DNA of 12,492 nt, from the NCBI GenBank assembly GCA_021325095.1, contig JAJPHV010000108.1, forward strand, positions 1-12,492. The letters are read 5' to 3'. This document shows, in pieces, positions 1 through 12,492 of the stretch (within the stretch, counting starts at the first letter, position 1; each line of letters starts with the position of its first letter). The translations under genes and the position numbers were made by a program. Below the pieces are notes generated by a model. That model searched no databases, was not told the origin of the DNA, and saw nothing but the letters and a program-made list of their open reading frames with translations. The DNA comes from Chloroflexota bacterium. Lineage in GTDB: Bacteria; Chloroflexota; Anaerolineae; Aggregatilineales; UBA2796.

Positions 1-73
1 CTGTTCAGGCGGTCGTGCCCAGAACTGGCCGTCATACCAGTACAGACGGCAGTCCAGACTGTAGTGTGGAAGT

Positions 74-424
74 TCAACTTGACTTGATGGCTCGATGTCC
101 TGCCCAAACTGCTCCCGCCACCACGACGGTGATGCGACTGTTGGGGTCAGGTATCTGCACTGCACCAGTTATCCGCTTGCTGGCGTCAGTTCCCCCATCC
201 GAGATAGCGCTCAGTGAAGCAGGAGGGTTGTCAGTGGAAATGACCGGAAGTGTCATGCTCTGCCCCTTGCCGACAATCACTGACTGACCGACGTTAACCA
301 GCGGCACTCGCCCATGGGTAATGAGGACAATACCCGTTGTCGTCAACCCGATTACCATGAGAGCCAGCAGTAAGGCGTAAGTTACCAGCGCTTTCGACAC
401 CGCGAACCTAGCGGTCGTTTTCAT
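74..424 (-). CDS. hypothetical membrane-anchored protein (single N-terminal TM helix, then a Gly/Val-rich, probably beta-rich part); distal gene of the HMA transcript
   Basis: Complete 116-aa ORF. On the coding strand GGGGAGATCCGCC precedes the ATG, giving a Shine-Dalgarno at 7-nt spacing. It starts 18 nt after the HMA gene stop. The N-terminus has a hydrophobic stretch ALVTYALLLALMVIGL. I recognise no family motif. Confidence 0.5.
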   Translation of the reverse strand: MKTTARFAVSKALVTYALLLALMVIGLTTTGIVLITHGRVPLVNVGQSVIVGKGQSMTLPVISTDNPPASLSAISDGGTDASKRITGAVQIPDPNSRITVVVAGAVWAGHRAIKSS

Positions 425-442
425 GGCGGATCTCCCCTTTGC

Positions 443-667
443 CTACAGGACCGCCGTATAACCGGCTTCCCAGATCGCTTTGACAATTTGTTCCGGCGTT
501 ACTGTGCCTGGTTTGACTTCAACACGGGTTTCCCCGTTGCGCCAGTTGTCGATAGTTACCGTTTTTACCCCGTCCAGGGACAGCACTGCCTCCTGGACGT
601 GGTACGCGCAGGTAGGGCAGGTCATCCCCTTGACTTTGAGTACGAGTGGCTGTTGTGAGTTTTCCAT
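443..667 (-). CDS. heavy-metal-associated (HMA) domain metallochaperone, CopZ/MerP-like, without a signal peptide
   Basis: GMTCPTCAYHV matches the GMTCxxC metal-binding loop of the HMA ferredoxin-like fold. The protein is 74 aa if started at MENSQQ, which is preceded by AGAGAGGA at about 10 nt. The longer ORF reaches 754 but the extension has no ribosome binding site. It lies downstream of MerR-type promoter copy P2. Confidence 0.8.
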   Translation of the reverse strand: MENSQQPLVLKVKGMTCPTCAYHVQEAVLSLDGVKTVTIDNWRNGETRVEVKPGTVTPEQIVKAIWEAGYTAVL

Positions 668-793
668 AATGAATTCCATCCTCTCTGGCTCGTAAAGCCT
701 TGTCGTTTGTTTGCGGGTGCTGCATCGCGCGCCTGTCACCGCACCGAATTGCATTGCCAGTGGGCGGCTTCAAGCACGGATATGCCCCGGAGA

Positions 794-827
794 CCATGCT
801 ACATCTTCCAGTCGGTGGAATGTCAAG
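794..827 (-). promoter_or_regulatory. MerR-type promoter/operator copy P2: -35 TTGACA (plus coords 821-826), 19-bp spacer, -10 TAGCAT (796-801); perfect dyad TTCCA-N5-TGGAA (806-820) inside the spacer
   Basis: Read on the minus strand: CTTGACATTCCACCGACTGGAAGATGTAGCATGG. It matches the promoter upstream of merR at 30 of 34 positions. A 19-bp spacer with an internal dyad is the classic MerR-family operator architecture. It sits about 120 nt upstream of the HMA gene start. Confidence 0.6.
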
Positions 828-948
828 CCCTCTGGGGCAAAGTGCATAGGCGAGATCGCCGTCAGCCGAGCGCCCTGGCTGCGCTCTTCACGGCTTCGTT
901 AAGCGTGGGATGGATGTGGATCGATTTGGCAAGGGGTTCTGCCGATGT

Positions 949-2289
949 TTACACCATGTAACTTATATCGGAGGATTCGGCTGGATGGACGAAGATCGTC
1001 TGTTTAATATCCGTCGCTGTGAGATGGTGGCGGATAGCAAGCGCGAACAGATTGATAACTTCGCCCGCATGGGAACCCAGCAGGTGCGCGCCAAGAATGC
1101 GTCCGGTGTCCGCGTCCACCAGCACTTTGAACGCCGTGTGTTTTTCATTAGTCCGGCGCGACGAATACCAGCCCTCTGTTTTCTGGAAGTTGACAGTAAA
1201 CTTAAGATCCTTTTCGCGCGCCTCCTCTTCATTCAGCCCCGTTCTTGCCAGCGCAGGAACGGTAAATACCACACTGGGCGTGCCGGTGTAGTCCGGCGTG
1301 CGTTGGTTGCCTCTAAGCAAATTGCTGGAAACAACATGTCCATCGGCAACGGCCACCGGGGTCAGGGGCATTCCCTTCGTAGCAGCCGCATCCCCAGCGG
1401 CATACACGGCAGGATTGGACACACTTTGAAGATAGTCGTTCACGACAACCCCGCGCGTCGTGTACTCAATGCCGCCTTGCTCAAGGTTGAGGCCCTCAAT
1501 GTCAGGGACACGTCCCGCGCCGTGTACGACGAGGTCCGATGGAAAACTACCTCCGTCGGACGTATGCACCCGCAGTTGGTCATTCTCTTTTTCAATGACG
1601 ACGACCTCCGATTGTAACCGCACGTCAATACCGATACTCCTGGTTGCAGCGACCAACTCTGTCACCAGATCCGCGTCGAAGGCTTCCAGCGGGCGTTTGC
1701 CGCGATGCAGAATCGTCACCTGCGCGCCGGCGCGAGCGGCAATATGGGCAAACTCGAATGAAATATACCCTCCGCCGATGAATACGATGCGCTCTGGCAG
1801 CGTTTCCAGTTCAAGAAAATCGGTACTGGTCGCTACGTATTCCGCGCCGGGAATACCCAGGTCACGGGGCTTCGCGCCCGTCGCAATGGCAATACGTTTC
1901 GCAGTCAGCGTTTCGCCATCGAGCTGGAGGCTGTTCGGGCCAACAAACTGTGCCTCGCCGTGATAGGTTGCGATACCGGAGCCACGGAACGATTTCTCGA
2001 TGTTCGCGGGTGTCGGGTCGGTAAAGGTGCGCTTGAAACGGATCAGGTCTGCCCAGTCAATCCGCATCTCGCCTGCAATCCCATGTCCAGTCATGCGGCG
2101 CTGCCAATCCATCAATTCGGCTGCGCCCACTAGCACTTTCTTCGGGTCGCAGCCGCGCAGAGCGCAAGTGCCGCCATACGGACGCGAATCGACCACAGCC
2201 ACTTCCCAACCACTCGAGCGCACTCGCCGCGCGATGTTTTGCCCGGCCATGCCAACGCCGATCACGACAAGATCAAATTCGTTACTCAT
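949..2289 (-). CDS. class I FAD-dependent pyridine nucleotide-disulfide oxidoreductase (glutathione-reductase/MerA-core family). It lacks the NmerA domain and the C-terminal Cys pair.
   Basis: 446 aa. The N-terminus has the FAD Rossmann motif DLVVIGVGMAGQ. The redox-active disulfide reads GGTCALRGCDPKK (CxxxxC). There is a second GxGxxG (FIGGGYISFE). The C-terminal HPAESSD resembles the His-Glu dyad of the dimerisation domain. It starts 46 nt after the MerT-like gene stop. Confidence 0.85.
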   Translation of the reverse strand: MSNEFDLVVIGVGMAGQNIARRVRSSGWEVAVVDSRPYGGTCALRGCDPKKVLVGAAELMDWQRRMTGHGIAGEMRIDWADLIRFKRTFTDPTPANIEKSFRGSGIATYHGEAQFVGPNSLQLDGETLTAKRIAIATGAKPRDLGIPGAEYVATSTDFLELETLPERIVFIGGGYISFEFAHIAARAGAQVTILHRGKRPLEAFDADLVTELVAATRSIGIDVRLQSEVVVIEKENDQLRVHTSDGGSFPSDLVVHGAGRVPDIEGLNLEQGGIEYTTRGVVVNDYLQSVSNPAVYAAGDAAATKGMPLTPVAVADGHVVSSNLLRGNQRTPDYTGTPSVVFTVPALARTGLNEEEAREKDLKFTVNFQKTEGWYSSRRTNEKHTAFKVLVDADTGRILGAHLLGSHAGEVINLFALAIRHHLTATDIKQTIFVHPAESSDISYMV

Positions 2290-2335
2290 GGTTCAACCTT
2301 TCCCTCCTGTGTCCCAAAGACTGGACGAATAGCGG

Positions 2336-2686
2336 CTATTGCCGGGCGCGATGTGTCACTGACTGACCGAGCGGTTCACAACATTCGCACGACTTTTCCA
2401 GGGGCAAGTGCTCGGCTTTCGGTCGGGGTTCGGTTGGCGTCAGCGACTGACGTTTAGGCTTGCTATCCTGGCTCAACCACACTGACCCCAGCCCAATGCC
2501 TCCAAAGAAAAGGACAGTGGATAAGGCGAACACCAGACCGGTGTTCGCACTCAACCAGGCACCGAACGCCGTACCCGCCGTCAGAGCCAACACAATCGGC
2601 AGGGTGATCGCCAAATGACAGGGGCAGGCTATAATGCCAACGCCCGTGCTGACGTAACCTCGAATAGATCGGATTTTCGTGCTCAT
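2336..2686 (-). CDS. putative mercuric ion transport membrane protein (MerT/MerF-like; intramembrane CPC plus cytoplasmic CECC)
   Basis: 116 aa from MSTKIRS, which is preceded by GAGGAGG at 7 nt. The upstream Met of the longer ORF lacks a ribosome binding site. It has 2-3 predicted TM helices with ACPCH inside the first. The basic C-terminal tail ends in SCECCEP. It lies immediately downstream of merA. Cys pairs in a TM helix and a cytoplasmic tail are the hallmark of MerT/MerF/MerC importers, although this arrangement is non-canonical. Confidence 0.5.
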   Translation of the reverse strand: MSTKIRSIRGYVSTGVGIIACPCHLAITLPIVLALTAGTAFGAWLSANTGLVFALSTVLFFGGIGLGSVWLSQDSKPKRQSLTPTEPRPKAEHLPLEKSCECCEPLGQSVTHRARQ

Positions 2687-2728
2687 CAGGTTTTTCCTCC
2701 TCGACAATTGAAGCGAACAAGCAATCTT

Positions 2729-4420
2729 TCAACCTGCGCAGCACGACAGCATCGCCACATCTTTCTCAAAGGTCTGCGCGGCCAGCTTCAGCCCTTCGAC
2801 CATCGTCAGATACGGGAAGAAGGTATCGATCAAGTCCTGTAACGTCATGCCCGCTTTGATGGCAACCACCGCCGGTTGGACAACCTCCCCTGCATCGGGG
2901 GCCAGCACATGAGCGCCGAGCAGGTGATCCGTCGTCGCGTCAGCGACCAGTTTGATCAAACCGCGTGTGTCGCGGTTAGCCAGGGCGCGCGGAACGTATG
3001 CCAGCGGTAAAACAGAGGTCTTGACCTCATAGCCCGCCTGGCGCGCCTGCTGTTCGGTCAGCCCCACTGCGGCCACTGCCGGATCGGTGAACGTGACTCG
3101 CGGCAGCACGCTCGTATCATAAACACGGCCTGACCCGTTGAGCGCGTTGTCCGCAGCCAGCGTGCCGCTATAGGCGGCCACATACACGAACATATCGCGC
3201 CCGGTCACGTCGCCTGCGGCATAGACGTAGGGATTGGTCGTGCGTAGCTGTTCATCCACAATGATTTCGCCCCGTTTGCCGAGTTTGACCCCGGCTTCTT
3301 CGAGGGCCAGGCCGCGCGTGTTGGGTCGCCGACCCGTCGCCATCAGCAGGGCTTTTGCCTCGAAGACCAGCGTTTCACCAGCGCGTTCAGCCGTGAGGCG
3401 GTAACCGCGTTCATTCCGGTCTACCCGTGAGATGGTCACGCCAGCCTCAACGATCAGCCCTTCTTCGCGCAGGTAGCCGGTCAGCGCTTCGCTGATCTCT
3501 GGCTCTTCAAAGGGGGTGATCACCGGCATCACTTCCAACACCGTGACCTTCGTGCCGAAGCGCGCGTAAGCCTGAGCCAGTTCCAGCCCGACGGCGTTCG
3601 CGCCGACCACAATCATCGAAGCCGGACGCTCGGTCAGGTCCAGCGCCGAGGTGCTGTCCAGATAGCCAGCTTCCTCCAGACCGGGAATGGGGGGAGTCCA
3701 TGGCTTGGCACCGGTAGCGATGATGATCTTGCCAGGCGTGTACACGGTGGGTGTCGCGTTGTTCCCGACGGGCGCAATCTCAACCCGGTTGTCGCCCAGC
3801 AGTTTAGCCCGGCCCTGGAGGTAGGTAATGTCCGGGTAGGCAGCCAGCACATCAATGTATTTGGCCTGGCGAAGCGTCGTGACCAGTTCATCCTTCTGGG
3901 TGATCACAGCCCCCCAATCTCCGGCGGCGCTCAGGCGCACCGCTCCCTGGAATGGGTGATGCCCCGCCAGGTGATGCAGCTCGGCGGCACGGATGATCGT
4001 TTTAGACGGCACACAACCGACATTGACGCAGGTGCCGCCGATGGTGCTGGCTTCGACGAGGGCGACACGCTTACCCAGTTCAGCCCCCTTGATCGCTGCC
4101 GCGAAGCCTGCCGACCCCCCACCGATGACCATCAAATCGTAATCTTGAGAAGCGCTGTCACCATCCTGGCTGGTGGGCTGTAGCTCACGGCGCGCTTTCA
4201 CCGTCGCGCGATAACCCGCCTCTTTGACTGCCGTGACGAGCGCCTCGCTGGGCACGTCGCTGCTGGCCTTCAAGGTCGCTTGTGCTGACTGCCAGCTGGG
4301 TACGTCCACCTCGCTGACGCCAGGAACGCTCTTCAACGCTTTGGTGACGTGAACCGCGCAGCTATCGCAGGTCATCCCGCGCACGTCGAGCGTAATGTGT
4401 TGTACTGTCTCCGTTGTCAT
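2729..4420 (-). CDS. merA: mercuric reductase MerA with an N-terminal HMA (NmerA) domain
   Basis: 563 aa. The N-terminus has GMTCDSCAVHV (HMA). FAD binding is DLMVIGGGSAGFAAA. The redox-active site is GGTCVNVGCVPSK. The C-terminus ends LSCCAG, the vicinal Cys pair diagnostic of MerA. GAGAGGGAAACCA precedes the ATG as a ribosome binding site. Confidence 0.95.
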   Translation of the reverse strand: MTTETVQHITLDVRGMTCDSCAVHVTKALKSVPGVSEVDVPSWQSAQATLKASSDVPSEALVTAVKEAGYRATVKARRELQPTSQDGDSASQDYDLMVIGGGSAGFAAAIKGAELGKRVALVEASTIGGTCVNVGCVPSKTIIRAAELHHLAGHHPFQGAVRLSAAGDWGAVITQKDELVTTLRQAKYIDVLAAYPDITYLQGRAKLLGDNRVEIAPVGNNATPTVYTPGKIIIATGAKPWTPPIPGLEEAGYLDSTSALDLTERPASMIVVGANAVGLELAQAYARFGTKVTVLEVMPVITPFEEPEISEALTGYLREEGLIVEAGVTISRVDRNERGYRLTAERAGETLVFEAKALLMATGRRPNTRGLALEEAGVKLGKRGEIIVDEQLRTTNPYVYAAGDVTGRDMFVYVAAYSGTLAADNALNGSGRVYDTSVLPRVTFTDPAVAAVGLTEQQARQAGYEVKTSVLPLAYVPRALANRDTRGLIKLVADATTDHLLGAHVLAPDAGEVVQPAVVAIKAGMTLQDLIDTFFPYLTMVEGLKLAAQTFEKDVAMLSCCAG

Positions 4421-4529
4421 TGGTTTCCCTCTCTACCTATCCGCAAAATTAGACTGATGCCTTGAGCCAGTGGTCATACCGGCTGTGTCAACCATGTTGA
4501 TAAATGGCTATGCAACACGCTACCTTTCT

Positions 4530-5189
4530 TTACCCGGCATTTTGCATTGCCTGCTGAGGCGTATCCGGCGAAACTGGTGGGTGTACTAGCCTGTACGTCG
4601 CTACGGGGATCGCTTTGCCCTTAAGCGACAGATCGCCGATAAACTGGTACTCATCCGGCTCCAGCAGCTTCTGGATGTCGGCGGTGCAGAGGGCTTGTTT
4701 TCCCTCGGCTAATGCGGCCAGGCGGCTGGCCGTATTGACCGTGTCGCCGATGATGGTCAAGTCCTGTGTGCGCCCAGTCCCTAGCCGGGATAACATGGCC
4801 GTACCTCGCGCCAGTCCGATGCCGAGGGTTGGACAGACTGTCGATGGATAGCACGATTTTATGCGCTCGAACCCCTCAATCAGCGTCAGCGCCGTGTGGT
4901 AGGCGTGTTTCACTTCGCGGCGCGGTTCGGTGGTGTCGCTGAAGGCAGCCAGGATGCCATCGCCCAGGAACTTGAAAATCTCTCCAGCCTGTTGCTGAAT
5001 AATGTCGCTGGCAAGCTGGTAAAACCGATCCAGCAACGTCACAACCTCACGCACCGGCAGTTGCTCGGTCAGGGAGGTGAAGCCCCGCACATCGGCAAAC
5101 ATCACCGTCAGAGGCTGTTCGCGCACGCAGCAATCCACAACAATAGCAGGGTGGTCGCTGCTTAACGGGCGCAGTGCTGACGCGCTCAT
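4530..5189 (-). CDS. stand-alone class III nucleotidyl cyclase (adenylate/guanylate cyclase catalytic domain)
   Basis: 219 aa. VMFADVRGFT carries the first metal Asp and KFLGDGILAAF the second. GDTVNTASRL carries the transition-state Asn and Arg. The C-terminal LKGKAIPVATYRL is the typical end of a cyclase homology domain. A 28-aa N-terminal extension contains VVDCCV. Its start overlaps the stop of the upstream CBM48-like gene as ATGA. Confidence 0.85.
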   Translation of the reverse strand: MSASALRPLSSDHPAIVVDCCVREQPLTVMFADVRGFTSLTEQLPVREVVTLLDRFYQLASDIIQQQAGEIFKFLGDGILAAFSDTTEPRREVKHAYHTALTLIEGFERIKSCYPSTVCPTLGIGLARGTAMLSRLGTGRTQDLTIIGDTVNTASRLAALAEGKQALCTADIQKLLEPDEYQFIGDLSLKGKAIPVATYRLVHPPVSPDTPQQAMQNAG

Positions 5190-5476
5190 GTGTTGACGAC
5201 CGAGTTCTCTGAACCGAACGGGTTAGGGACGTAAGCGTCCGCGTGCCAATCGTTATGCCATTCGGTCTCATTGACCAGGTAGCGGAATTGATGGGCGCAC
5301 TGTGTTGGCAGTGTAAAGGTTGCTGTAAATTTTCCTTCCTTCGTCTGCTTCATCACCTGGGGCTGCCAGTCCGTAAACTCGCCACAAATCCAGGCGTGTT
5401 GTGCCTGCAATTCGCCGGGCAGGACGAAGGGGACCTGACAGCTTTGCCCATCTGAAGCATAGGCTTTCTCGATCAT
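5186..5476 (-). CDS. small CBM48 / AMPK-beta glycogen-binding-domain-like (E-set) protein
   Basis: 96 aa. VPFVLPGELQAQHAWICGEFTDWQ...KFTATFTLPTQCAHQFRYLVNETEWHNDWHA resembles the AMPK-beta GBD / isoamylase N-terminal CBM48 pattern: V-P-x-x-F-x-W, G-x-F-x-x-W, a KF/YKF beta strand and W-x-x-D. A ribosome binding site GGGAAAGGA sits 8 nt before the ATG. It is translationally coupled to the cyclase. Confidence 0.55.
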   Translation of the reverse strand: MIEKAYASDGQSCQVPFVLPGELQAQHAWICGEFTDWQPQVMKQTKEGKFTATFTLPTQCAHQFRYLVNETEWHNDWHADAYVPNPFGSENSVVNT

Positions 5477-5609
5477 CGGCCTGATCCTTTCCCTAACTTG
5501 CAGCAGTGCGTGGCTGTAAATCGGCCATAATGTCTCACTGTGGCTCCTTCAAAGGTGCCCCCCTTGCTGTACTGCTATGTGCAGCGTTTGAGCGACTGCC
5601 ATGCCACTC

Positions 5610-6002
5610 TTACTCAGATGACCAATGCCAACCTGCATTTGTGGGTCTTCGCGCCAGACCCTGCGCGGCATTACACATAGCCTTGAGTTCGTCACGGACT
5701 TGCTCAAGGTCACGAATACGATCCTGAATTTCCCCGATCCGGCGGCCCATCAGGTTCATGACGTAGCGGCAAGGAGGCTCACCGCGTTCTCGAAAAGCTA
5801 CAATTTCGGCAATCTCATCCAGCCCCAGGTCCAGCACATGCACCCGTCGGATGAAGCGCAGCCGTTCCACGTCCGCATCCTCGTATCCCCGGTAGCCATT
5901 TGGGGCACGTTTGGCAGGCGGCAGCAAGCCGATTTCCTCGTAGAAACGGATGGTCTTGCACGGCACGCCTGTCCGGTGACTCAACTCGCTGATTTGAAAC
6001 AT
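5610..6002 (-). CDS. merR: MerR-family metal-responsive transcriptional regulator
   Basis: 130 aa from MFQISELS, preceded by GGAGGTGA at 5 nt. The HTH is ISELSHRTGVPCKTIRFYEEIGLL, followed by a coiled-coil dimerisation helix. Cys sits at the start of the dimerisation helix (EPPCRYV) and at AMCNAAQG. It lies directly downstream of the P1 dyad promoter. Confidence 0.8.
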   Translation of the reverse strand: MFQISELSHRTGVPCKTIRFYEEIGLLPPAKRAPNGYRGYEDADVERLRFIRRVHVLDLGLDEIAEIVAFRERGEPPCRYVMNLMGRRIGEIQDRIRDLEQVRDELKAMCNAAQGLARRPTNAGWHWSSE

Positions 6003-6034
6003 CGCTGTCACCTCCACATCTCGCATTCTTTCAG

Positions 6035-6068
6035 CCATGCTACGACTTCCTGTCGCTGGAATGTCAAG
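6035..6068 (-). promoter_or_regulatory. MerR-type promoter/operator copy P1: -35 TTGACA (6062-6067), 19-bp spacer, -10 TAGCAT (6037-6042), dyad TTCCt-N5-TGGAA
   Basis: Read on the minus strand: CTTGACATTCCAGCGACAGGAAGTCGTAGCATGG. The implied transcription start is about 28 nt upstream of the merR ATG at 6002. The 19-bp spacer is suboptimal for sigma70 and typical of MerR-activated promoters. Confidence 0.6.
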
Positions 6069-6137
6069 AGGGTCTTTTAGCGGTAGTGAAGAAACGCTTC
6101 GATTCAGACCAGACTGAAAGAAGCGGCCTTTGTATAC

Positions 6138-6356
6138 TCAATCCTCCTGGTGAAGTGTCTCACGGTCGGCTTTGGGTACTTGTTCACCGATCCAGTCTGC
6201 CACGGGCGACTGCAAGCTGCCGCCGCAAGCTGGACAGCGTGGCTCAGTATCGGCACAGTATGCGCCACAGGCCACACACTGCAACTCACCTTCGTACATG
6301 GCCCGTACCAGTTCGATGATCGCCTGATAATCGCCCCCCATACGACAACACATCAT
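6138..6356 (-). CDS. small Cys-rich zinc-ribbon protein
   Basis: 72 aa from MMCCRMGG, preceded by AAAAGGAAGGGA as a ribosome binding site. It contains C-x2-C-x3-C-x6-C-x2-C (CVACGAYCADTEPRCPACGG) plus an N-terminal MMCC. That is 8 Cys in 72 aa. Confidence 0.45.
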   Translation of the reverse strand: MMCCRMGGDYQAIIELVRAMYEGELQCVACGAYCADTEPRCPACGGSLQSPVADWIGEQVPKADRETLHQED

Positions 6357-6539
6357 TCCCTTCCTTTTCGACCCATTGGCTTTCGCCTGTCGCACGTCGA
6401 TTCTTGCTTTCCAGTTTCTTTGTCCAGTAGCTTTGATGTGGCTTTCAGTCTCATCCTCATGGGCGATCCGTTATCGATAGACAAAGACAACCTTTTGCCA
6501 CACAGGATTTTGGGGATCGCCTTCATTGTCATAAGTTGG

Positions 6540-6791
6540 TCAGGTTTGTCCTGAGCTAATCGCGATGAGGGCATCGAGGATTGCGAGAAGCTCTGTTCGG
6601 CAATTCGGTACACAGGCCCGGCACTTGTGAAAAGCCGGTGCCCACTGATCTAGAGAGGCGTCGGTCTCGCTCAACAACTCGGTGAAAAACTCCAACAGGG
6701 CAAAACATTCTGCCGCTGTCAAGGATGTTGGTTCTTCCCTGGTCAATTCGACCAACAATTCCCATAGCTCACGACTCATCTCGCTTAACAC
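6540..6791 (-). CDS. hypothetical small acidic helical protein with a H-x-C-x2-C-x3-C motif
   Basis: About 79-83 aa. The start is GTG at 6791 or ATG at 6779, and the ribosome binding site is weak. The sequence includes ELWELLVELTREE, LLEFFTELLSETD and FHKCRACVPNC. No family is recognised. It is the first gene downstream of the C7-centred palindrome. Confidence 0.35.
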   Translation of the reverse strand: MLSEMSRELWELLVELTREEPTSLTAAECFALLEFFTELLSETDASLDQWAPAFHKCRACVPNCRTELLAILDALIAISSGQT

Positions 6792-6847
6792 CCCAGTAGA
6801 GGCAACCTCCTACAGCTTGCGCCTCGTGAAGCTGCAATCCCGGCTAT

Positions 6848-6872
6848 TATCCCTATCCCCCCCATAGGGATA
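6848..6872. promoter_or_regulatory. candidate CsoR-type operator: perfect 9-bp inverted repeat TATCCCTAT-C7-ATAGGGATA
   Basis: TATCCCTAT at 6848-6856 and ATAGGGATA at 6864-6872 are exact reverse complements around a CCCCCCC centre. Known CsoR operators are pseudo-palindromes built around a G/C tract. The site lies in the divergent intergenic region between csoR and the 83-aa ORF. A second dyad AGGGG-N7-CCCCT lies at 6930-6946. Confidence 0.45.
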
Positions 6873-6962
6873 TAGTCATTGTATCATACGGCTAATCCCT
6901 TGTCAACTAAGTTTGAGGAATTATCTGCCAGGGGTAAATATCCCCTAGCCCCGGATATGGAT

Positions 6963-6991
6963 TTGACTTTGACGTTACCGAAATTTATAAT
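6963..6991 (+). promoter_or_regulatory. sigma70 consensus promoter of csoR (-35 TTGACT 6963-6968, 17-bp spacer, -10 TATAAT 6986-6991)
   Basis: Near-perfect hexamers at ideal spacing. The predicted transcription start is about 6998. AAAGGA at 7017-7022 is a Shine-Dalgarno 8 nt before the ATG at 7031. Confidence 0.65.
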
Positions 6992-7030
6992 CGGAGTTAA
7001 TTGCCAACTCAGTGATAAAGGATTCCGCAA

Positions 7031-7348
7031 ATGACGAATACAACGCCTGACCTTGGTGAGCAGACAACCACCTACCTCGATCCTGAACTGGTCGGAAATC
7101 TGCAAGATCGCCTTAGCCGAATCGCTGGTCACGTTAGCGCGGTTTCGCGGATGCTGGGTGAGCAAAAAGACTGTGATCAAATCCTGATCCAGATGGCCGC
7201 CATTAAAGCGGCCATGAATCAGGTGATCATCAAGACTCTGGAAGGACATATTTCGATCTGTATTCAGACACAAACGGCTGAAGGACAGAACAGTGAAGCA
7301 CTGGAAAGCTTAATGAAAGCCTTGAATGTTGTGCTAAAAAATTCCTAA
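7031..7348 (+). CDS. csoR: CsoR/RcnR-family (DUF156) metal-sensing transcriptional repressor
   Basis: 105 aa. LQDRLSRIAGHVSAVSRML...KDCDQILIQMAAIKAAMNQVIIKTLEGHISIC matches the CsoR helical bundle. The Cu(I)-ligand positions Cys (KDC), His and Cys (EGHISIC, H-x3-C) are all present. A consensus promoter and ribosome binding site lie upstream. Confidence 0.9.
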   Translation: MTNTTPDLGEQTTTYLDPELVGNLQDRLSRIAGHVSAVSRMLGEQKDCDQILIQMAAIKAAMNQVIIKTLEGHISICIQTQTAEGQNSEALESLMKALNVVLKNS

Positions 7349-7508
7349 GCTCGTGTTTCGCAGTTGGAGCATTCCCCTTCAGTAGACAGTTCGCAGCCAG
7401 GTAGTGCCGCAATAGATAGAAGCCATTTGATAAAGCGTGAAGCAAGGTGATCGCCTCATATAGCCGGTGCAAGACGTTTCAACAGGCGGTGAATGGACGC
7501 CAGATAAA

Positions 7509-7781
7509 TCATGCTTTCACTACGGTCGGTGAAGAACGCAAAGTCTTTGCTGAGGCGCCGAGCCAGGCCAACGAGCACTCCACCAGCCAGCGCCAGGGGA
7601 TGACTTCAAAGCCCTGGAGGTCATCGCTGCGCAGGGTAATATCGACAATGATCGTCTTGAACTTCTGGGCGAGCCAGTCGACAAACTCGCCGCGATAGCC
7701 GCCATCGGCCCACAGCCGCTTCAGAGGCTTGAACACGACTTTGGGCAAGGCCTTGAGCAGTTCAATGCTGAGATCACTTGC
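7509..7781 (-). mobile_element. 3' fragment of an IS5-family (IS427/IS903-like DDE) transposase gene, truncated at the 5' side; pseudogene remnant
   Basis: LWADGGYRGEFVDWLAQ...LRSDDLQGFEVIPWRWLVECSLAWLG matches the C-terminal DDE region of IS5-family transposases (xADxGY, RW(V/I)VE, AWL). The frame is closed by a TAG at 7782-7784 on the minus strand. Sequence further upstream is not transposase-like in any frame. Confidence 0.6.
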
Positions 7782-7942
7782 CTAGTCACTCGGATTCTGC
7801 GACACTTGGCTTCACTCCTGGTAGGTTCTCTGCGTAAAGTTCGCACTTTCCAGTCTACCCAACAGGACTTTTTTCTCGCCTTCTTTTTCAAATGGCTTCG
7901 AAGAGGTATTGGAGCTAGACGCTGTTCACGAACCTGGAAAGG

Positions 7943-8377
7943 ATGTATATGCCGCTGGTGACACGATGGGCCATTCGGGCCGCTATGGTTTACCTGTTGC
8001 TAGGGCTGCTGACCGGAACCCTCTACTGGGCGAATCTACAATGGGCATTGTGGCCGCCGCTGGCCGCGTTAAGCCCAACCTATCTGCATTTGCTGGTGAT
8101 CGGCTGGCTGACCCAGCTTGTTTTCGGCGTCATCTACTGGATGTTCCCGATCATCAACAAAGCCAACATGCGCGGCGACCCCCGGCTGGCATGGAGCGTG
8201 TTGCTCCTGCTCAATGCGGGCATGATCCTGCGCCTGATCTGCGAACCCTGGCGCGCCAGCGCTCCCAATGACCTGAACGGCCTGGGGCTGGTCGTGTCGG
8301 CCATATTGCTCACGCTGGCTGGCTACCTGTTCGTGGTCGTTTGCTGGCCGCGTGTGCGTGAGAGAGCAGGAAGCTGA
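7943..8377 (+). CDS. 4-TM integral membrane protein, paralog A (conserved H-x2-LLV-x-GWL-x-QL-x2-GV-x-YW-x2-P motif)
   Basis: 144 aa. Four hydrophobic helices. The ATG at 7943 or 7949 is preceded by GGAAAGGA. A paralog follows 3 nt later. Confidence 0.6.
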   Translation: MYMPLVTRWAIRAAMVYLLLGLLTGTLYWANLQWALWPPLAALSPTYLHLLVIGWLTQLVFGVIYWMFPIINKANMRGDPRLAWSVLLLLNAGMILRLICEPWRASAPNDLNGLGLVVSAILLTLAGYLFVVVCWPRVRERAGS

Positions 8378-8380
8378 CCA

Positions 8381-8836
8381 ATGCCCCTCTTGAGTCGCTG
8401 TTTCATCCGCTCTGCGCTGGTTTGCCTGGCAATTGGTTTCACGTTGGGCGGGCTGATGCTCTCGGCGAAGGGTGGCGCTGTCGATGCGCGGGTCTGGGCC
8501 TGGCTGCCCATGCACATCGCTTTGCTGGTCAATGGCTGGCTCGTTCAGCTTTCACTGGGCGTCATGTACTGGATCTTGCCGCGTATTCATCTGGGGGATC
8601 GCGGGCGGCCCGCCTGGGCGTGGAGCGGGTTCGTCTGCCTGCAAGTTGGCCTGCTGCTGGCGCTCGTTTCCGGGGCCAGCCTGTGGATTGCAGAGGCAGC
8701 CAACCTGTTTGCACCGGCGATGGTGTTACAGGCGGCAGGCATCGTCCTGTTTGCCGTCCATGCCTGGCCGCGCATCCGCCCCGCGATTGTGCGCGCCGCG
8801 CAGGGCGCAGGTGACAGAACAGTTTCAAACTCCTGA
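8381..8836 (+). CDS. 4-TM integral membrane protein, paralog B, translationally coupled to paralog A
   Basis: 151 aa. It shares HIALLVNGWLVQLSLGVMYWILP and AWAWS with paralog A (HLLVIGWLTQLVFGVIYWMFP and LAWS). AGGAAG lies at the end of gene A. Confidence 0.6.
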   Translation: MPLLSRCFIRSALVCLAIGFTLGGLMLSAKGGAVDARVWAWLPMHIALLVNGWLVQLSLGVMYWILPRIHLGDRGRPAWAWSGFVCLQVGLLLALVSGASLWIAEAANLFAPAMVLQAAGIVLFAVHAWPRIRPAIVRAAQGAGDRTVSNS

Positions 8837-8847
8837 TTCGCAAACGA

Positions 8848-8876
8848 AGTGCCCGGCGTGCGCAATGCCGGGCACT
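8848..8876. terminator. bidirectional hairpin between convergent genes (10-bp perfect stem AGTGCCCGGC / GCCGGGCACT, 9-nt loop)
   Basis: The hairpin lies 12 nt after the paralog B stop and about 44 nt after the flotillin stop. Flanking T stretches are weak on both strands, so intrinsic termination is only moderately supported. Confidence 0.45.
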
Positions 8877-8919
8877 GTTGTGCGTGATTGGTTGGGACAG
8901 GTGGGAGAGCCGTTCGCCC

Positions 8920-10962
8920 CTAACTCTGTTTGTCGCCGCTCTCGGCCACGTCCATCGCACCGACCACATTCTGACCATTGCCAGACTTGTTGGCGATCTG
9001 GTCAAGGATGCTCTGGCGGATGCGTTCGACCTCGGTACTGGGCCTGCTCTGAGCGCCCGCCTTCCCGTCAACGGTCAACTTCTCGGACAGCAGCATCGCC
9101 ATCAGCGCCTCGAACGCGCTGTAGCTGCCGCCATTGCCACTGCCGTTGCCGCCGGTGATCACCATCTTCGGCACGATGTCGATACCGGATTTCTCGACGG
9201 CAGCGCTGAAGCGATCCAACGCCTGTTGGAGCACCTGGAACTGCGGCCCGCCGTAAGCGCGTACCTGTTCCTCGACGGCCAGGGCGCGGGCAATCCCGAT
9301 ACGGGCTTCGCGCTCGGCGTCCGCTTCGGCCAGCGCTTTGATCTTGGCCGCTTCTTGCAGCGAGCGCTGGTAGGAAGCCTTACCTTCGTTGCTCTGGATA
9401 GTGATGCTGATCTGCGATTCGGTCAGCGATTGCTGCTGCCGGGCGATGGCTTCGGCCTCGCGGAGTTCACGCTCTTTGGCAGCGGCAGCTTCCTTGCGGC
9501 TGTACGTTTCGATCTGTTCGACGGCGATCTGGCGATCCCGGAGCTGGGCCAGGATTTGCTCGATCTTCTGATCCGAGGCCGAGGACGCGGGCGTGCCAAT
9601 CAGCACTTCTTCCAGTTCCAGGTTGTAATGTGCAAAGCGATCCTTCATCTCCCGCGATGATTGATCTTGAATCTGGCTGCGTTCCTGGATCAACTGGATA
9701 AGGGTGCGCGTCTGCCCGATGTTCTTGAAGTACGCCGCCACCATCGGGTCAAGGGTCTGGTCAACCAGGCGCTTGATGTCGCCAAAGCGCTGGATGACCA
9801 GCGGCGCTTTGCGGTAGTCGATGTGAATGACCACCGAAAGCGGCAGAAGCGGCTCAAAAGCATCCTTCGTGATCAGTTCCACTGCCGACAGGTTTTCGTC
9901 GAAGCGATGCGCGCCGACCTCGTCCTTGTTCCACTTCAAGATGATGTTGGTAGTCGGCACCAGAATGACTTTCCCCGCATAGGTGTTGAAGGCATACTTG
10001 CCGGGCATCAGCGGCGTACTCCAAACACCCTTGAAGCCTTTCTCCACCATTTCGCCGTGCTTGTAATCTTCGCCGGAGATGTCGCCGCCTCGTCCGCCTG
10101 TGTACGACACAATGACCCCGACGAAACCGACGTCGATCACTGTCTTGGGAATCATCTCGACGGTGCCGAACAGCCGATTGATGAAATACGTGCCCTCGAC
10201 GAGCACCTGCAACTGGCGACCACGCCGGCCACCCGCTGCCAGGAACTTCTCCGGGTCCTGGAAATTGTTGTGATACGTACTGGGGTCCTTCGGGTCGTCG
10301 CCTACTGTCGGGGCGATGATGTCATCCTGGGAAAGGGATGGGCCGTCGTGTACGGTTACGATTCCGACCAGATCGTCTGCACCTTTGATGACGACAGGCC
10401 GGAAGCCCTCGCGCTCCTGGATCAGGGCGGCCATCCGTTTGAAAGTGGCTTCTTCCTCACGACTGATCGGCAGGTAGTAGTTGCCTGCTTCGGTCAACAC
10501 CACGAACTGCGCCAGGTTGATGGCATATGTACCTTCACGCAGGATTTCACGCTGCGGGCCGCGCTGCCCACCGTGTTTCAGAAAGCCTTCCACGTCCTGG
10601 AAGGTCTTGCCTTCGGGGATGACCGCACCGAGGGTCTGTGTCGGGCGCATCGGCATACCGTCGCGCGCGAAGACGTACCCGATCTGGCCCTGCGGAATCG
10701 TGACCAATGGCGCAAGATGAACACGATACTGGAAGGGCATCAGAAAATGGACGCCACCGCGCAGAACATTCGGTTGAAAACCGGCCTCTTTGTTGAGCGC
10801 AATGAACCCGTCCTTGACGGAACCCTTGCCCGAAAAGACCTTTTCCACGATGCCGATACGATTGTTGGGGACGATGCGGATGACCCTGGTCAACAGAAAG
10901 TACAGCACGACGATTATGGCGACCAGCAGGAGAACTGTAACGGCAAGCTGTAGCTGCGGCAT
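8920..10962 (-). CDS. flotillin-family SPFH (band 7) membrane scaffold protein
   Basis: 680 aa. It has an N-terminal TM hairpin, an SPFH-like core (RIVPNNRIGIVEKVFSGKG) and a long Glu/Ala-rich coiled coil (EAAAAKERELREAEAIARQQ, ALAEADAEREARIG) typical of the flotillin domain. GAGGAG sits 7 nt before the ATG. Confidence 0.9.
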   Translation of the reverse strand: MPQLQLAVTVLLLVAIIVVLYFLLTRVIRIVPNNRIGIVEKVFSGKGSVKDGFIALNKEAGFQPNVLRGGVHFLMPFQYRVHLAPLVTIPQGQIGYVFARDGMPMRPTQTLGAVIPEGKTFQDVEGFLKHGGQRGPQREILREGTYAINLAQFVVLTEAGNYYLPISREEEATFKRMAALIQEREGFRPVVIKGADDLVGIVTVHDGPSLSQDDIIAPTVGDDPKDPSTYHNNFQDPEKFLAAGGRRGRQLQVLVEGTYFINRLFGTVEMIPKTVIDVGFVGVIVSYTGGRGGDISGEDYKHGEMVEKGFKGVWSTPLMPGKYAFNTYAGKVILVPTTNIILKWNKDEVGAHRFDENLSAVELITKDAFEPLLPLSVVIHIDYRKAPLVIQRFGDIKRLVDQTLDPMVAAYFKNIGQTRTLIQLIQERSQIQDQSSREMKDRFAHYNLELEEVLIGTPASSASDQKIEQILAQLRDRQIAVEQIETYSRKEAAAAKERELREAEAIARQQQSLTESQISITIQSNEGKASYQRSLQEAAKIKALAEADAEREARIGIARALAVEEQVRAYGGPQFQVLQQALDRFSAAVEKSGIDIVPKMVITGGNGSGNGGSYSAFEALMAMLLSEKLTVDGKAGAQSRPSTEVERIRQSILDQIANKSGNGQNVVGAMDVAESGDKQS

Positions 10963-11151
10963 ACTTTACTCCTCACAATCGGGCTGAACGCAAACGAAGC
11001 GATGCCTCACCTCTGCGGAATCTGCAATCAGTCCTAGCAATTAGGATACACCTGTTTGCCCTAGAGGGGTGAAGACATCAATCTGATAGTCCGCTGACAG
11101 TCCAGCGGTCAGCGTTGTGAGGAGAGCAAGACCAGAACAGAAAATTGACCA

Positions 11152-11179
11152 TTGGAATGTGCCAGGACTATGCTATAAT
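11152..11179 (+). promoter_or_regulatory. candidate tRNA promoter: -35 TTGGAA (11152-11157), 16-bp spacer, extended -10 TGcTATAAT (11171-11179)
   Basis: The -10 hexamer is perfect with an upstream TG, and the -35 is weak. The transcription start would fall about 5-10 nt before tRNA position 1. Confidence 0.4.
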
Positions 11180-11189
11180 CCGTTCTCCT

Positions 11190-11265
11190 GAACCCGTAGC
11201 TCAATCGGTAGAGCAGCGGACTTTTAATCCGTTGGTTGAGAGTTCGAGTCTCTCCGGGTTCACCA
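11190..11265 (+). tRNA. tRNA-Lys (anticodon UUU), with genome-encoded CCA
   Basis: Manual cloverleaf: acceptor GAACCCG/CGGGTTC; D-arm GCTC-AATCGGTA-GAGC; anticodon stem GCGGA/TCCGT with loop CTTTTAA; 5-nt variable loop; T-arm GAGAG-TTCGAGT-CTCTC; discriminator A then CCA. Confidence 0.93.
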
Positions 11266-11267
11266 CC

Positions 11268-11309
11268 CACAAACCGCATGGAGATGCGGTTTGTGCTTTT
11301 CTTGCGTTT
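11268..11309 (+). terminator. rho-independent terminator after the tRNA: 12-bp stem CACAAACCGCAT / ATGCGGTTTGTG, GGAG loop, then CTTTTCTTGCGTTT
   Basis: A perfect 12-bp stem followed by a T-rich tract immediately 3' of the tRNA. Confidence 0.7.
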
Positions 11310-11599
11310 AGGCCAACGGACATGCAGTCTTTTGTTCCTGTGCCGATCTCCCGGAAGATCAACGCTGAGTGAGCGGCGGCTCTCGCAGGCCAGCATATGC
11401 CTGCGGAACCCCTTCGAGTGGGACTGACCGCTGGAACCAGTCGCCATCTTCGGGATAGATCAGGCTGAGTACCCCCACCTCGATCTCCTCCTCGCCGTCG
11501 TCGCTGGCGATGATCCCGACAAGCTGGCCGGGGTAAGCCCGTGCCAGGCCTATCAAGACGGCGACGATCTCCTCCGGGTTGATGGTGATGATCTTGACG

Positions 11600-12335
11600 C
11601 TCCTCCTCCTCACTCGAAAATACGTCTGTGAGCGGGCTGAATCGCTCGTGGCGCTCAGACAACTCCCGCCCGCCGAACACCGCGTAGAATGACGCAGTGG
11701 TGTTCACATTACTGTGGCCCATGAGCTGTGACACTTCGGGCAGGCTGGCTCCCTTGCGCAGCATCTCGCGGGCAAAGCCGTGCCGGAAGCTGTGAGGGTT
11801 GGCACGGCCCGTCACCCCGGCCTTGCGCTTCAGGCGCTTCAGGATGTGCTTCAGGCCGTTGACGGTCAGGGGCCGCGCGTAGCTTCGGGGAAGCAGTGAG
11901 CAAAAGACCGTTGTGGCCTGTGGTGGGCGGACGGCCAGCCAGTCCGCTAGGGAGGCCTCGGTGCGGGCCGTGAAGGGCACGCTGCGCAGCCGGTCGCCCT
12001 TCTCCGTGACGACGGCCCGCCGGTGGGCAAAGTCGATGGCGTCCAGGGTCAGCGAAACCAGCCCCCGGCTCGGCAGCCGGTATCGACAAAGACAGCCAGC
12101 ATGGCCCGGTTTCGCTTGCCGAGAGGAGTGTCATCCGTCGCGGCGAACAGTTTGCGGAGATCGTCCAGATCGACGGCCTTTGGCTGTGGCTGGGAGCGGC
12201 GCGGCAGACGGATGCACTGCATGGGGTTCGTGGCCGAGGCGAGGTTGTGCTCGGCCCAAGCCCAGTTGAAGAAGCGTTTCAGGGCGCGGATGCGACCCCG
12301 GATGGTCTCAACGGCCAGTCCGCCTGACGTTTCGG
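11600..12335 (-). pseudogene. tyrosine recombinase / phage-type integrase, degraded: frameshift near 12060, no in-frame stop after the catalytic Tyr, N-terminus replaced
   Basis: The segment 12335-12049 encodes LAVETIRGRIRALKRFFNWA...GKRNRAMLAVFVDTGCRAGG, with the core-binding domain and box I Arg. The next frame continues as LVSLTLDAIDF...ANPHSFRHGFAREMLRKGASL...LMGHSNVNTTASFYAVF, giving the HxxR, His and Tyr catalytic residues. The frame switch lies in a C5 run at 12063-12067. The frame then stays open through the tRNA gene to 11201. The 3' end of the annotated span is only estimated. Confidence 0.7.
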
Positions 12336-12492
12336 GTCGATGATGGCGGCACTGGGCTGCGCGTCTCGGCCCAGCGGAATACGTAACTTTTCGCGCAGGA
12401 CGGTATTGATGCGCTCCCCAATCCCCGCTCGTCGCCACTGCCGATAATAGTCATGCACCGTCTTGTACGGTGGAAAATCATGCGGCAACAAA
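12336..12492 (-). mobile_element. 5' fragment of an IS5-family (IS427-group) transposase gene, partial at the window edge and joined directly to the integrase remnant
   Basis: LPHDFPPYKTVHDYYRQWRRAGIGERINTVLREKL...AQPSAAIID matches the conserved OrfA region of IS427-group transposases, where the usual form is LPxDFPPWxTVYxxFRRWrxdGtWe ... PSAgiIDSQSVKT. Similarity ends after IID, exactly where integrase-like coding begins in another frame. Confidence 0.55.

Follow-up and report, generated by a model that had tools for sequence, protein, structure and literature searches.

Two types of operators have been distinguished for repressors of the CsoR/RcnR family (PMC3902906, citing Iwig and Chivers 2009; PMC12724321). 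Type 1 operators have a single uninterrupted G/C tract of 3-8 bases, and type 2 operators have two short G/C tracts with 2-4 bases between them and AT-rich inverted repeats outside, ~11 bp apart (PMC3902906). Tandem sites are described as common among operators of the family (PMC3902906, PMC12724321). Type 1 architecture has been described for RcnR, FrmR, and NreA, and the characterised CsoR operators are type 2 (PMC3902906, PMC12724321). How CsoR/RcnR proteins read DNA is still unresolved (PMC5016687, PMC3902906). Here we describe a palindrome, designated site 1, in a 12,492-nucleotide stretch of DNA from a Chloroflexota bacterium (contig JAJPHV010000108.1, positions 1 to 12,492); the whole stretch is referred to as the window. 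Site 1 lies in a 251-bp intergenic region between a gene for a CsoR/RcnR-family regulator (7031-7348, plus strand) and a divergent gene for a small protein (6540-6779, minus strand). We consider it likely, with a probability of roughly 0.8, that site 1 is the operator of the adjacent CsoR-family repressor and acts mainly on the divergent promoter, as an earlier note on this DNA had proposed. The features on which the argument depends are as follows.

6848-6872: site 1, the putative operator, TATCCCTAT-C7-ATAGGGATA, with perfect 9-bp arms (TATCCCTAT 6848-6856, CCCCCCC 6857-6863, ATAGGGATA 6864-6872); it reads TATCCCTAT-G7-ATAGGGATA along the divergent transcript
6878-6906, minus strand: predicted sigma-70-type promoter of the divergent genes, with -35 TTGACA (6906-6901), a 17-nt spacer, and extended -10 TGATACAAT (6886-6878)
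6930-6946: a dyad described in the earlier note, AGGGG (6930-6934), TAAATAT, and CCCCT (6942-6946), of which the right arm alone belongs to the conserved site 2
6939-6963: site 2, a putative degenerate second operator, TATCCCCTA-GCCCCGG-ATATGGATT, which overlaps the regulator -35 by 1 bp
6963-6991, plus strand: predicted promoter of the regulator gene, with -35 TTGACT (6963-6968), a 17-nt spacer, and -10 TATAAT (6986-6991)
7031-7348, plus strand: CsoR/RcnR-family (DUF156) repressor of 105 amino acids (aa) with the signature His34, Asp47, Cys48, His73, Cys77
6540-6779, minus strand: orf79, the first gene downstream of site 1, a small acidic helical protein with Cys25 and C52-x2-C55-x3-C59

The palindrome has the type 1 form, with a C7 tract directly flanked by TAT/ATA 7 bp apart and with CCC/GGG as an additional outer element. 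The earlier description of it as having the architecture of CsoR operators is correct in the sense of a CsoR/RcnR-family operator and is otherwise imprecise, because the build is type 1 while characterised CsoR operators are type 2.

Relative to the predicted promoter, the position of site 1 is that of a classic repressor site. The predicted minus-strand promoter matches the sigma-70 consensus at 11 of 12 positions, has an extended -10 with TG, and has a predicted start near 6871. Because the palindrome begins 5 bp downstream of the -10, it would span approximately +1 to +24 of the predicted orf79 transcript. This register relative to the -10 is kept in five homologous loci and at 11 other promoters. 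The predicted promoter of the regulator gene also matches the consensus at 11 of 12 positions. The distances reported previously were roughly right: counted from the edge of the palindrome, the GTG at 6791 lies at 57 bp and the ATG at 6779 at 69 bp, and the figure of ~95 bp from the palindrome to the csoR -35 is 91 bp to the -35 predicted here. The ATG at 6779 (MSRELW) is likely to be the start of orf79 rather than the GTG at 6791, and it is common to the closest homologous locus, L001, and a 79-aa JGI product. Thus, the Cys-motif open reading frame (ORF) that had been described as 83 aa is more likely to encode 79 aa.

Comparison of five intergenic regions provided a phylogenetic footprint. 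A protein search with the regulator returned few relatives. The regions aligned were those of the window and of four sets of loci from that search, whose regulators share 97% (L001), 80% (L002/L003), 71% (L004), and 67% (L005) identity with the window protein; AT content is much higher in L004 and L005. Mean column identity in the alignment was 63%, and 21 of the 25 site 1 positions were invariant, with the variants described by TATCCC[TC][AG]T-C6[CT]-ATA[GT]GGATA. The other invariant blocks were the divergent -35 (TGTCAA on the plus strand), ATCCCCTA at 6940-6947, the csoR -35 TTTGACTT, and the csoR -10 TA.AAT. The minus-strand extended -10 was partly conserved. The distance from site 1 to the divergent -35 was exactly 28 bp in all five loci, the 25-bp frame of site 2 overlapped the csoR -35 by 1 bp in all five, and the csoR -35 and -10 kept a constant distance (65-69 bp) to the ATG. 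Sites 1 and 2 stood at varying distances from each other (88, 91, 91, 106, and 108 bp). Thus, each element appears to be locked to its own promoter, because the registers are fixed and the intersite spacing is not. In the closest pair, the window and L001, orf79 and the regulator gene were 96-97.5% identical at the DNA level and the spacer between them was ~80% identical, suggesting that both genes are constrained and that the spacer has drifted except for the elements listed above. The divergent gene differs among the loci: the window and L001 have orf79, L002 has a gene for a 469-aa membrane protein followed by one for an MFS transporter, and the L004 gene encodes yet another product, which is unannotated. 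This suggests that the promoter-operator-regulator cassette is conserved and that its cargo is exchangeable. The central tract of site 1 was 7 nucleotides long in all relatives (C6T in L001), and this lack of length variation gives no sign of slipped-strand phase variation at the C7/G7 tract.

The sequence features, their conservation, and their fixed register are observed directly, as is the recurrence of the palindrome beside CsoR-family genes elsewhere. A genome scan with protein alignment retrieved 49 loci, the nearest of which (45-62% identity) were all from Chloroflexota metagenome-assembled genomes. When the motif TATCCC-N3-(C/G)7-N3-GGGATA was sought in these genome loci, with up to 2 mismatches allowed in the arms and a tract no shorter than 6, there were 9 matches in 323 kb versus 0.13 in shuffles. 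Most of the strict matches sit from a few to ~11 bp past a TTGACA-17/18-TAnnnT promoter, upstream of a merA, csoR-like, or zf_CopZ gene. Positions were inspected for 11 sites, including two more lenient ones (in L015 and L026). Five loci (L009, L024, L025, L020, and L015) have the TTGACA-17/18-TAnnnT promoter followed by an operator (for example, TATGCCCAT-G7-ATGGGGATA) and then merA. The same promoter-operator layout precedes a zf_CopZ-domain gene, the regulator, and merT in L012 and L021 (Pfam was run on L012 only), and it precedes the regulator gene itself in L026, L033, and L040. In L048, from a member of the Bacillota, ATATCCCCAT-G7-ATGGGGATAT lies past the -10 and is followed by a csoR-like regulator and then a P-type ATPase.

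The earlier note had called for a search for the palindrome at cop genes in other genomes, and such a copy was found. The pattern TATCCCNNTCCCCCCNATANGGATA was scanned across a metagenome collection of partial coverage (JGI contigs known to carry the palindrome are evidently not in it), and the sole match was on a low-GC contig, L060. There, TTGACA-17-TATACT directly abuts ATCCCTAT-C7-ATAGGGAT, a palindrome identical to site 1 that overlaps the -10. A 90-aa CsoR-family gene begins ~50 bp beyond it, followed by a P1B ATPase with a CPC motif and an N-terminal CxxC domain. The identical palindrome thus stands at -10/+1 of a csoR-copA operon, and it appears to be used at this textbook promoter. 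The L060 regulator is only 27% identical to the window regulator, and the two loci share the same 23-bp operator core. The same scan of a viral collection for the palindrome gave no match. Distant homologues (L029, L039, and L049-L054) have canonical type 2 boxes (for example, ATACCCC-TAG-GGGGTAT), mostly beside P1B ATPases.

One residue of the regulator follows the operator type. Residue 34 is His (R-x-x-R-I-x-G-H) wherever the operator is of the G7/C7 type, even in the distant L048 and L060, and is Gln (R-I-E-G-Q) wherever there is a type 2 ATACCC...GGGTAT box. It is possible that residue 34 is a determinant of DNA specificity, with the limitation that the pattern is confounded by phylogeny. 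Since it tracks operator type across the loci examined, it offers a testable specificity determinant.

Site 2 is the weaker of the two elements. Its left half, ATCCCCTA (6940-6947), is invariant across the five loci, and its right half is variable. In L002 the position is occupied by a clean 8-bp inverted repeat, ATCCCCTA-N7-TAGGGGAT, and in L005 the right arm of site 2, ATATGGAT, is the same as the right arm of L005 site 1. Site 2 could be read as a type 2 operator, ATAT-CCCC-TAG-CCCC-GGATAT, with two tracts and 3 bases between them; both tracts are C on the same strand, and the arms ATATCC/GGATAT are 9 bp apart. A degenerate version of site 1 is the better description. The AGGGG-N7-CCCCT dyad of the earlier note is present at 6930-6946, but at chance level (3.1 dyads of 5 bp are expected per shuffled intergenic region) and without conservation: in place of its left arm L001 has AGGAG, and L002, L004, and L005 have no such arm. 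The statement that neither element overlaps the csoR -35 does not hold for the conserved second element, which overlaps it by 1 bp. A roadblock or looping arrangement, which had been offered to explain the distance of the palindrome from the csoR promoter, is unnecessary because each site keeps its register with its own promoter; DNA looping between sites 1 and 2 was rejected because their spacing is not conserved.

In the arrangement that we propose, the repressor encoded at 7031-7348 has a separate operator at each of two divergent sigma-70-type promoters. An apo-repressor tetramer, or two, on site 1 would block initiation at orf79-orf85. It may also reduce read-through into merR and merA, which is possible because no terminator was detectable downstream: no credible intrinsic terminator was found between orf79 and merA, where the five weak matches lay inside ORFs and their count was below chance. 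In the window the repressor would directly control orf79 and orf85 and would at most modulate read-through into merR and merA. Site 2, at the regulator's own -35, would provide weaker autoregulation. A soft thiophilic metal, coordinated by Cys48, His73, and Cys77 across the interface of the dimer, would weaken the binding of the repressor to DNA and so free both promoters from repression. We infer the start sites, the binding by the regulator, and the allosteric release, the last from knowledge of the family.

Several observations weigh against the assignment of site 1 as an operator. In the window, 4 places hold a perfect inverted repeat with arms of 9 bp or more and a spacer of 0-12 nt, versus 0.77 expected per dinucleotide shuffle, and 48% of such shuffles hold at least one. 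The palindrome is exactly as described previously, with arms that are 9/9 complementary around a 7-nt spacer; its precise sequence appeared in 0 of 200 shuffles, which speaks only to that exact sequence being unexpected. Symmetry by itself, in a window of 12.5 kb, is weak evidence and only suggestive. Therefore, the case for an operator rests on position and comparison. A promoter scan of the intergenic region gave 2 matches versus 1.1 expected by chance, and the promoters are consensus predictions only. The poor conservation of the right arm of site 2 puts a functional role for that element in doubt. The five closest loci are also related by descent, and shared ancestry could explain part of the conservation. 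This last concern is countered by the background identity of 63% and by the unrelated cases of L060 and L048.

The regulator is a clear member of its family. It matched PF02583 over residues 23-99 with 71.3 bits (cutoff, 22.8; E value, 8.9e-20), and its closest solved structure was InrS (5fmn; E value, 4.5e-13; ~38% identity over 81 residues). Position X of the WXYZ fingerprint of the family is a conserved sensing Cys at the N terminus of helix 2 (PMC5016687). Cys48 occupies this position; it is invariant in 12 homologues and aligned with InrS Cys53. Cys48, His73, and Cys77 align ungapped with InrS Cys53, His78, and Cys82, supplying the x-Cys-His-Cys ligand set of Cu(I)-CsoR, and these three residues and His34 are invariant in the clade. 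The Tyr that precedes the sensing Cys, Tyr35 in Mycobacterium tuberculosis CsoR, is one of two CsoR second-shell residues discussed in PMC4235346. The window protein lacks this Tyr, having Asp at residue 47, and the clade has Asp or Glu there throughout. Tyr is present in the copA-linked relatives, which have the fingerprints Q-Y-C-H-C (L049-L051) and H-Y-C-H-C (L060). The regulator missed the NCBIfam equivalog cutoffs for RcnR (50.5 bits versus 138), RicR (46 versus 175), and FrmR (39.5 versus 133). His21, the fourth ligand of InrS, has no counterpart; Leu16 is there by ungapped offset, the alignment starting at InrS residue 24, and residues 1-33 of the regulator contain no His. A tblastn search with an L006-derived query found no P1B ATPase in the closest loci, L001-L005, and the long ORFs of the window include no ATPase domain and no copA or copZA. 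The name csoR and the expectation of cop genes thus went beyond the evidence, given the failed equivalog cutoffs, the missing Tyr, the lack of a P1B ATPase, and the mer genes of the window. The regulator appears to represent a subfamily not previously described, with the x-C-H-C ligand set. Taken alone, the fingerprint suggests Cu(I); Hg(II), too, would be accommodated by a site with two Cys ligands.

The genes around the cassette bear on the question of the effector.

6138-6395, minus strand: orf85, the second gene downstream of site 1, a small protein with a zinc-ribbon-like CxxC...CxxC
5610-6038, minus strand: MerR-family gene, ~800 bp from the palindrome and on the same strand as the divergent genes
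6037-6067 and 796-826, minus strand: two nearly identical MerR-type promoters (TTGACA, 19-nt spacer, TAGCAT)
949-2289: second oxidoreductase
443-754: HMA protein, the only one in the window, with its own MerR-type promoter

On the minus strand, orf79 is followed by orf85, the MerR-family gene, an AMPK-type CBM protein, a class III cyclase, and MerA, and then by a MerE-like membrane protein, a second pyridine-nucleotide disulfide oxidoreductase, and the HMA protein, all in the same orientation. The MerA scored 562 versus the TIGR02053 equivalog cutoff of 454. The window looks like a mobile metal-resistance island because it combines the mer genes with an insertion sequence (IS) remnant, integrase fragments, and a tRNA-Lys. 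The two MerR-type promoters carry the dyad TTCCAsCGACwGGAA within the 19-nt spacer (in full, TTGACATTCCAsCGACwGGAAG..TAGCAT). One (6037-6067) lies just before the likely start of merR, which is probably the Met of MFQISEL near 6002, and the other (796-826) lies before the HMA gene. The pair is suggestive of a MerR regulon distinct from the CsoR-family operator.

Most of the closer relatives of the regulator are linked to mer genes. In a tblastn search with window proteins, most of the genome homologues that were at least 50% identical (L006-L028) adjoined merA, merT, or merE-like genes. The regulator gene follows merA by ~40-120 bp in five loci (L008, L009, L023, L024, and L028), with the C-terminal CCAG of MerA visible upstream. 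More broadly, it lies directly after merA, a merD-like position, or between merT/merE-like genes and merA, as also in L015, L020, L025, L010, and L016. The operators at merA promoters are in Chloroflexota operons that encode regulators 49-57% identical to the window protein; in L009 the operator, merA, and the regulator gene form a compact unit. No MerR homologue was found in the fetched flanks of L009, L025, L028, L020, and L010. The operons of L012 and L021 encode a 165-aa Cys-rich zf_CopZ protein, the regulator, a 76-aa protein without a Pfam match, and MerT, and that of L006 (62% identical) encodes two HMA proteins, a P-type ATPase, and MerA.

From this context our tentative guess is that the effector is Hg(II), possibly together with Cu(I), because the nearest named relatives sit in mer operons with a like operator at merA and because the window is a mer island. 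We put this at somewhat less than an even chance, and Cu(I) is equally plausible. With the same reservation, short of even odds, the broader proposal is that a mer-linked CsoR/RcnR branch with the signature His34-(Asp/Glu)47-Cys48-His73-Cys77 may sense Hg(II) and act through TATsCC-N3-G7-N3-GGsATA at merA promoters.

A conventional Cu(I)-sensing CsoR is a serious competitor, although its odds too are clearly below even. In this case orf79 and orf85 would be copper-handling proteins and the mer genes mere island neighbors; the operator assignment would be unchanged. The x-Cys-His-Cys set is the fingerprint of Cu(I)-CsoR, the identical palindrome serves the csoR-copA operon of L060, and a related operator precedes the P-type ATPase operon of L048. 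Related operons are mixed copper- and mercury-like in content, with zf_CopZ, HMA, and P-type ATPase genes alongside merT and merA. Furthermore, the mer genes of the window have their own MerR-type promoters, so control of them by Hg(II) through the repressor is not needed. All of this tells against mercury. However, the Tyr before the sensing Cys is replaced by Asp or Glu throughout the clade, the RicR model score is far below its cutoff, there is no copA in the 12.5 kb of the window, and most relatives that are at least 50% identical are in merA/merT/merE-like loci, five of them directly downstream of merA. The G7-type operators at the merA promoters of L009, L015, L020, L024, and L025 likewise count against a copper sensor.

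It is very unlikely that the palindrome acts as RNA, forming a 9-bp stem capped by a G7 loop that, at the 5' end of the orf79 mRNA, affects stability, processing, or translation. The palindrome would be transcribed if the start is near 6871, and the hairpin forms in the minimum-free-energy and centroid folds, but the leader folds no better than shuffled sequences (z = -1.75; equalled or bettered by 10 of 200 shuffles). The substitutions seen in the arms in L002 (TATCCCCGT / ATAGGGATA) and L005 (TATCCCCAT / ATATGGATA) are not compensatory, and a scan of 6300-7500 at E values up to 1 gave no Rfam match. An RNA role also does not account for the fixed -10/-35 register of the element or for its constant co-occurrence with a CsoR-family gene, and site 2 is upstream of its own promoter and hence not transcribed from it.

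A site for another regulator, such as the MerR-family protein encoded at 5610-6038, with the CsoR-family gene adjacent by coincidence, is even more improbable. That gene is on the strand of the divergent genes, and MerR homologues neighbor the regulator in L002, L015, and L024. However, the MerR-type promoters at 6037-6067 and 796-826 have a different dyad, and G7-type palindromes occur with no MerR homologue within reach (L009, L025, L048, and L060) and always with a PF02583 gene. Least credible of all is a dispersed, nonregulatory repeat, whether akin to a repetitive extragenic palindromic (REP) element, an outcome that the earlier note had named, or belonging to a mobile-element end. The window does look like a mobile island, but it holds a single copy of site 1 with no further copy of either arm at up to 1 mismatch, the 66 fetched loci hold none outside promoter regions beside CsoR-family or mer genes, and the metagenome collection, of partial coverage, and the viral collection gave 1 match, at the csoR-copA promoter, and 0 matches, respectively.

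The product of the divergent gene resembles few known proteins. orf79 had no Pfam or NCBIfam match, even at E values up to 10 (Pfam) and 0.1 (NCBIfam), and a word-indexed search with it returned the identical protein only. An exhaustive HMMER search added three small relatives (P0013, P0016, and P0017) and two repeat proteins (P0014 and P0015). The members of this very small family are helical proteins of 73-85 aa in which an N-terminal (E/D)C is conserved; P0013 and P0017, two of the three small relatives, also have a CxxCxxxC or CxxxC motif. The repeats of the large proteins P0014 and P0015 resemble the first 30 residues of orf79. An AlphaFold model has four helices with a predicted local distance difference test score of 80 and no fold match in the PDB at E values up to 0.001. 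A reading of orf79 as a zinc-binding anti-sigma-like (HxxxCxxC) protein was considered and could not be supported. The locus of P0013, which is 51% identical to orf79, has no palindrome upstream; thus, the orf79 family is not generally tied to the operator. orf85 is conserved in L001 and L056-L059 and gave weak zinc-ribbon and rubrerythrin-like matches only.

Other features of the window were also recorded. The class III adenylate/guanylate cyclase and AMPK-type CBM proteins (4530-5476, minus strand), between merR and merA, have overlapping stop and start codons; the pair is conserved in L001 and is unusual content for a mer operon. A CBM protein is also near the orf79 relative in L061. Downstream of the regulator, a DDE fragment, the IS remnant (7509-7748, minus strand), separates it from two paralogous small membrane proteins (7943-8377 and 8381-8836, plus strand) that are 39-40% identical to each other and have weak, subthreshold similarity to the N-terminal helices of COX1 and to DUF2871. 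A perfect 9-10-bp inverted repeat at 8848-8876, between two convergent genes, is a likely terminator. Immediately after a tRNA-Lys(UUU) comes a perfect inverted repeat of 9-12 bp at 11268-11295 (region 11190-11295), and fragmented tyrosine-recombinase ORFs are on the opposite strand (11201-12438); together these probably mark the edge of an integrated island. A megablast comparison of the window with plasmids returned only short merA stretches and part of an SPFH gene, and HIP1 (GCGATCGC) was absent from the window. A further CsoR-family clade (L042-L046, from Thermoanaerobaculia and one Pseudomonadota metagenome-assembled genome) has the sensing Cys shifted by one position and Glu in place of His (H-C-A-E-C). 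In L042, L044, and L045 the regulator is flanked by an HMA gene and a homologue of the window oxidoreductase at 949-2289 that is 53-57% identical, and the oxidoreductase and HMA genes may form a module of their own.

Among the described systems, the operator most like site 1 is that of NreA in the nreAXY nickel-tolerance operon of Mesorhizobium, TATCCtctcgggggGGATA, which is also type 1 with a G7 tract and TATCC/GGATA arms (PMC12724321). Mutagenesis demonstrated that those arms are essential for repression, and the operator overlaps the core promoter of a repressor that is autoregulated (PMC12724321). The NreA arms are 9 bp apart (TATCC-N9-GGATA, 19 bp), whereas site 1 is TATCCC-N13-GGGATA, 25 bp long, with an inner TAT/ATA pair. 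The NreA site is in the -35/-10 spacer of a single promoter, whereas site 1 is downstream of the divergent -10, with a weak site 2 on the regulator -35. NreA responds to Ni; the window regulator differs in fingerprint and gene context.

In Escherichia coli, rcnR and rcnA are divergent, and the likeness to RcnR is that one repressor controls its own gene and a cargo gene, as proposed here. The RcnR sites are tandem TACT-G6-N-AGTA, likewise two type 1 sites in one regulatory region (PMC3902906). RcnR differs in its TACT/AGTA arms and in its H-C-H-H Ni/Co fingerprint, compared with x-C-H-C in the window protein. The window cassette also differs in having its sites 88-108 bp apart (five loci), each tied to its own promoter.

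Canonical Cu(I)-CsoR, such as that of Streptomyces lividans with the operator ATATACCCCTNAGGGGTATAT, belongs to the same family and shares the Cys-His-Cys ligands and G/C-tract pseudopalindromes with AT-rich ends (PMC3902906). Its type 2 operators have two short tracts of opposite sense around a center of 3-5 nt and a TAC/GTA dyad, whereas site 1 has a lone, uninterrupted tract of 7 nt with the arms ATCCC/GGGAT. Residues 34 and 47 are Gln and mostly Tyr, respectively, in the proteins with type 2 boxes but His and Asp/Glu in the window clade, and the window has no copZA. The Ni sensor InrS of Synechocystis (5fmn) shares the EGH motif, the Cys-His-Cys set, and the lack of a Tyr before the sensing Cys, and its operator overlaps the Pribnow box (PMC3320959, PMC4235346). 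InrS differs in its ligand His21, opposite Leu16 in the window protein, in Glu98, which aligns with Ser93, and in a context of nrs rather than mer genes.

In proteobacterial mer operons, merD is directly after merA (PMC8261052, PMC3466566). Relatives of the window regulator often hold that position, with an operator at the merA promoter, and in this respect resemble MerR/MerD (PMC8261052, PMC3466566). MerR is a winged-helix activator acting on a long-spacer promoter, whereas the window protein is a DUF156 helical bundle and presumably a simple repressor at +1; the window additionally carries a MerR-family gene with its own MerR-type promoters. MerR and MerD are the sole regulators listed in the searchable surveys of mer diversity (PMC8261052). 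We found no description of CsoR-family proteins linked to mer regulation in the searchable literature. In several Chloroflexota contigs the sole recognizable regulator of merA is a close relative of the window protein, with the same kind of operator at merA. To our knowledge, only Cu, Ni/Co, formaldehyde, and persulfide sensors have been described in the CsoR/RcnR family. ArsR-type regulation of mercury resistance also exists. If these proteins respond to Hg(II), they would be an alternative to MerR as the primary mer regulator in Chloroflexota, a third mer regulatory solution beside the MerR and ArsR types, and a new effector class for DUF156. As a probable operator, site 1 is of a known kind, a clean and comparatively well-supported example of a long type 1 site; the linkage of this regulator clade and its operator to Chloroflexota mer operons is the novel lead.

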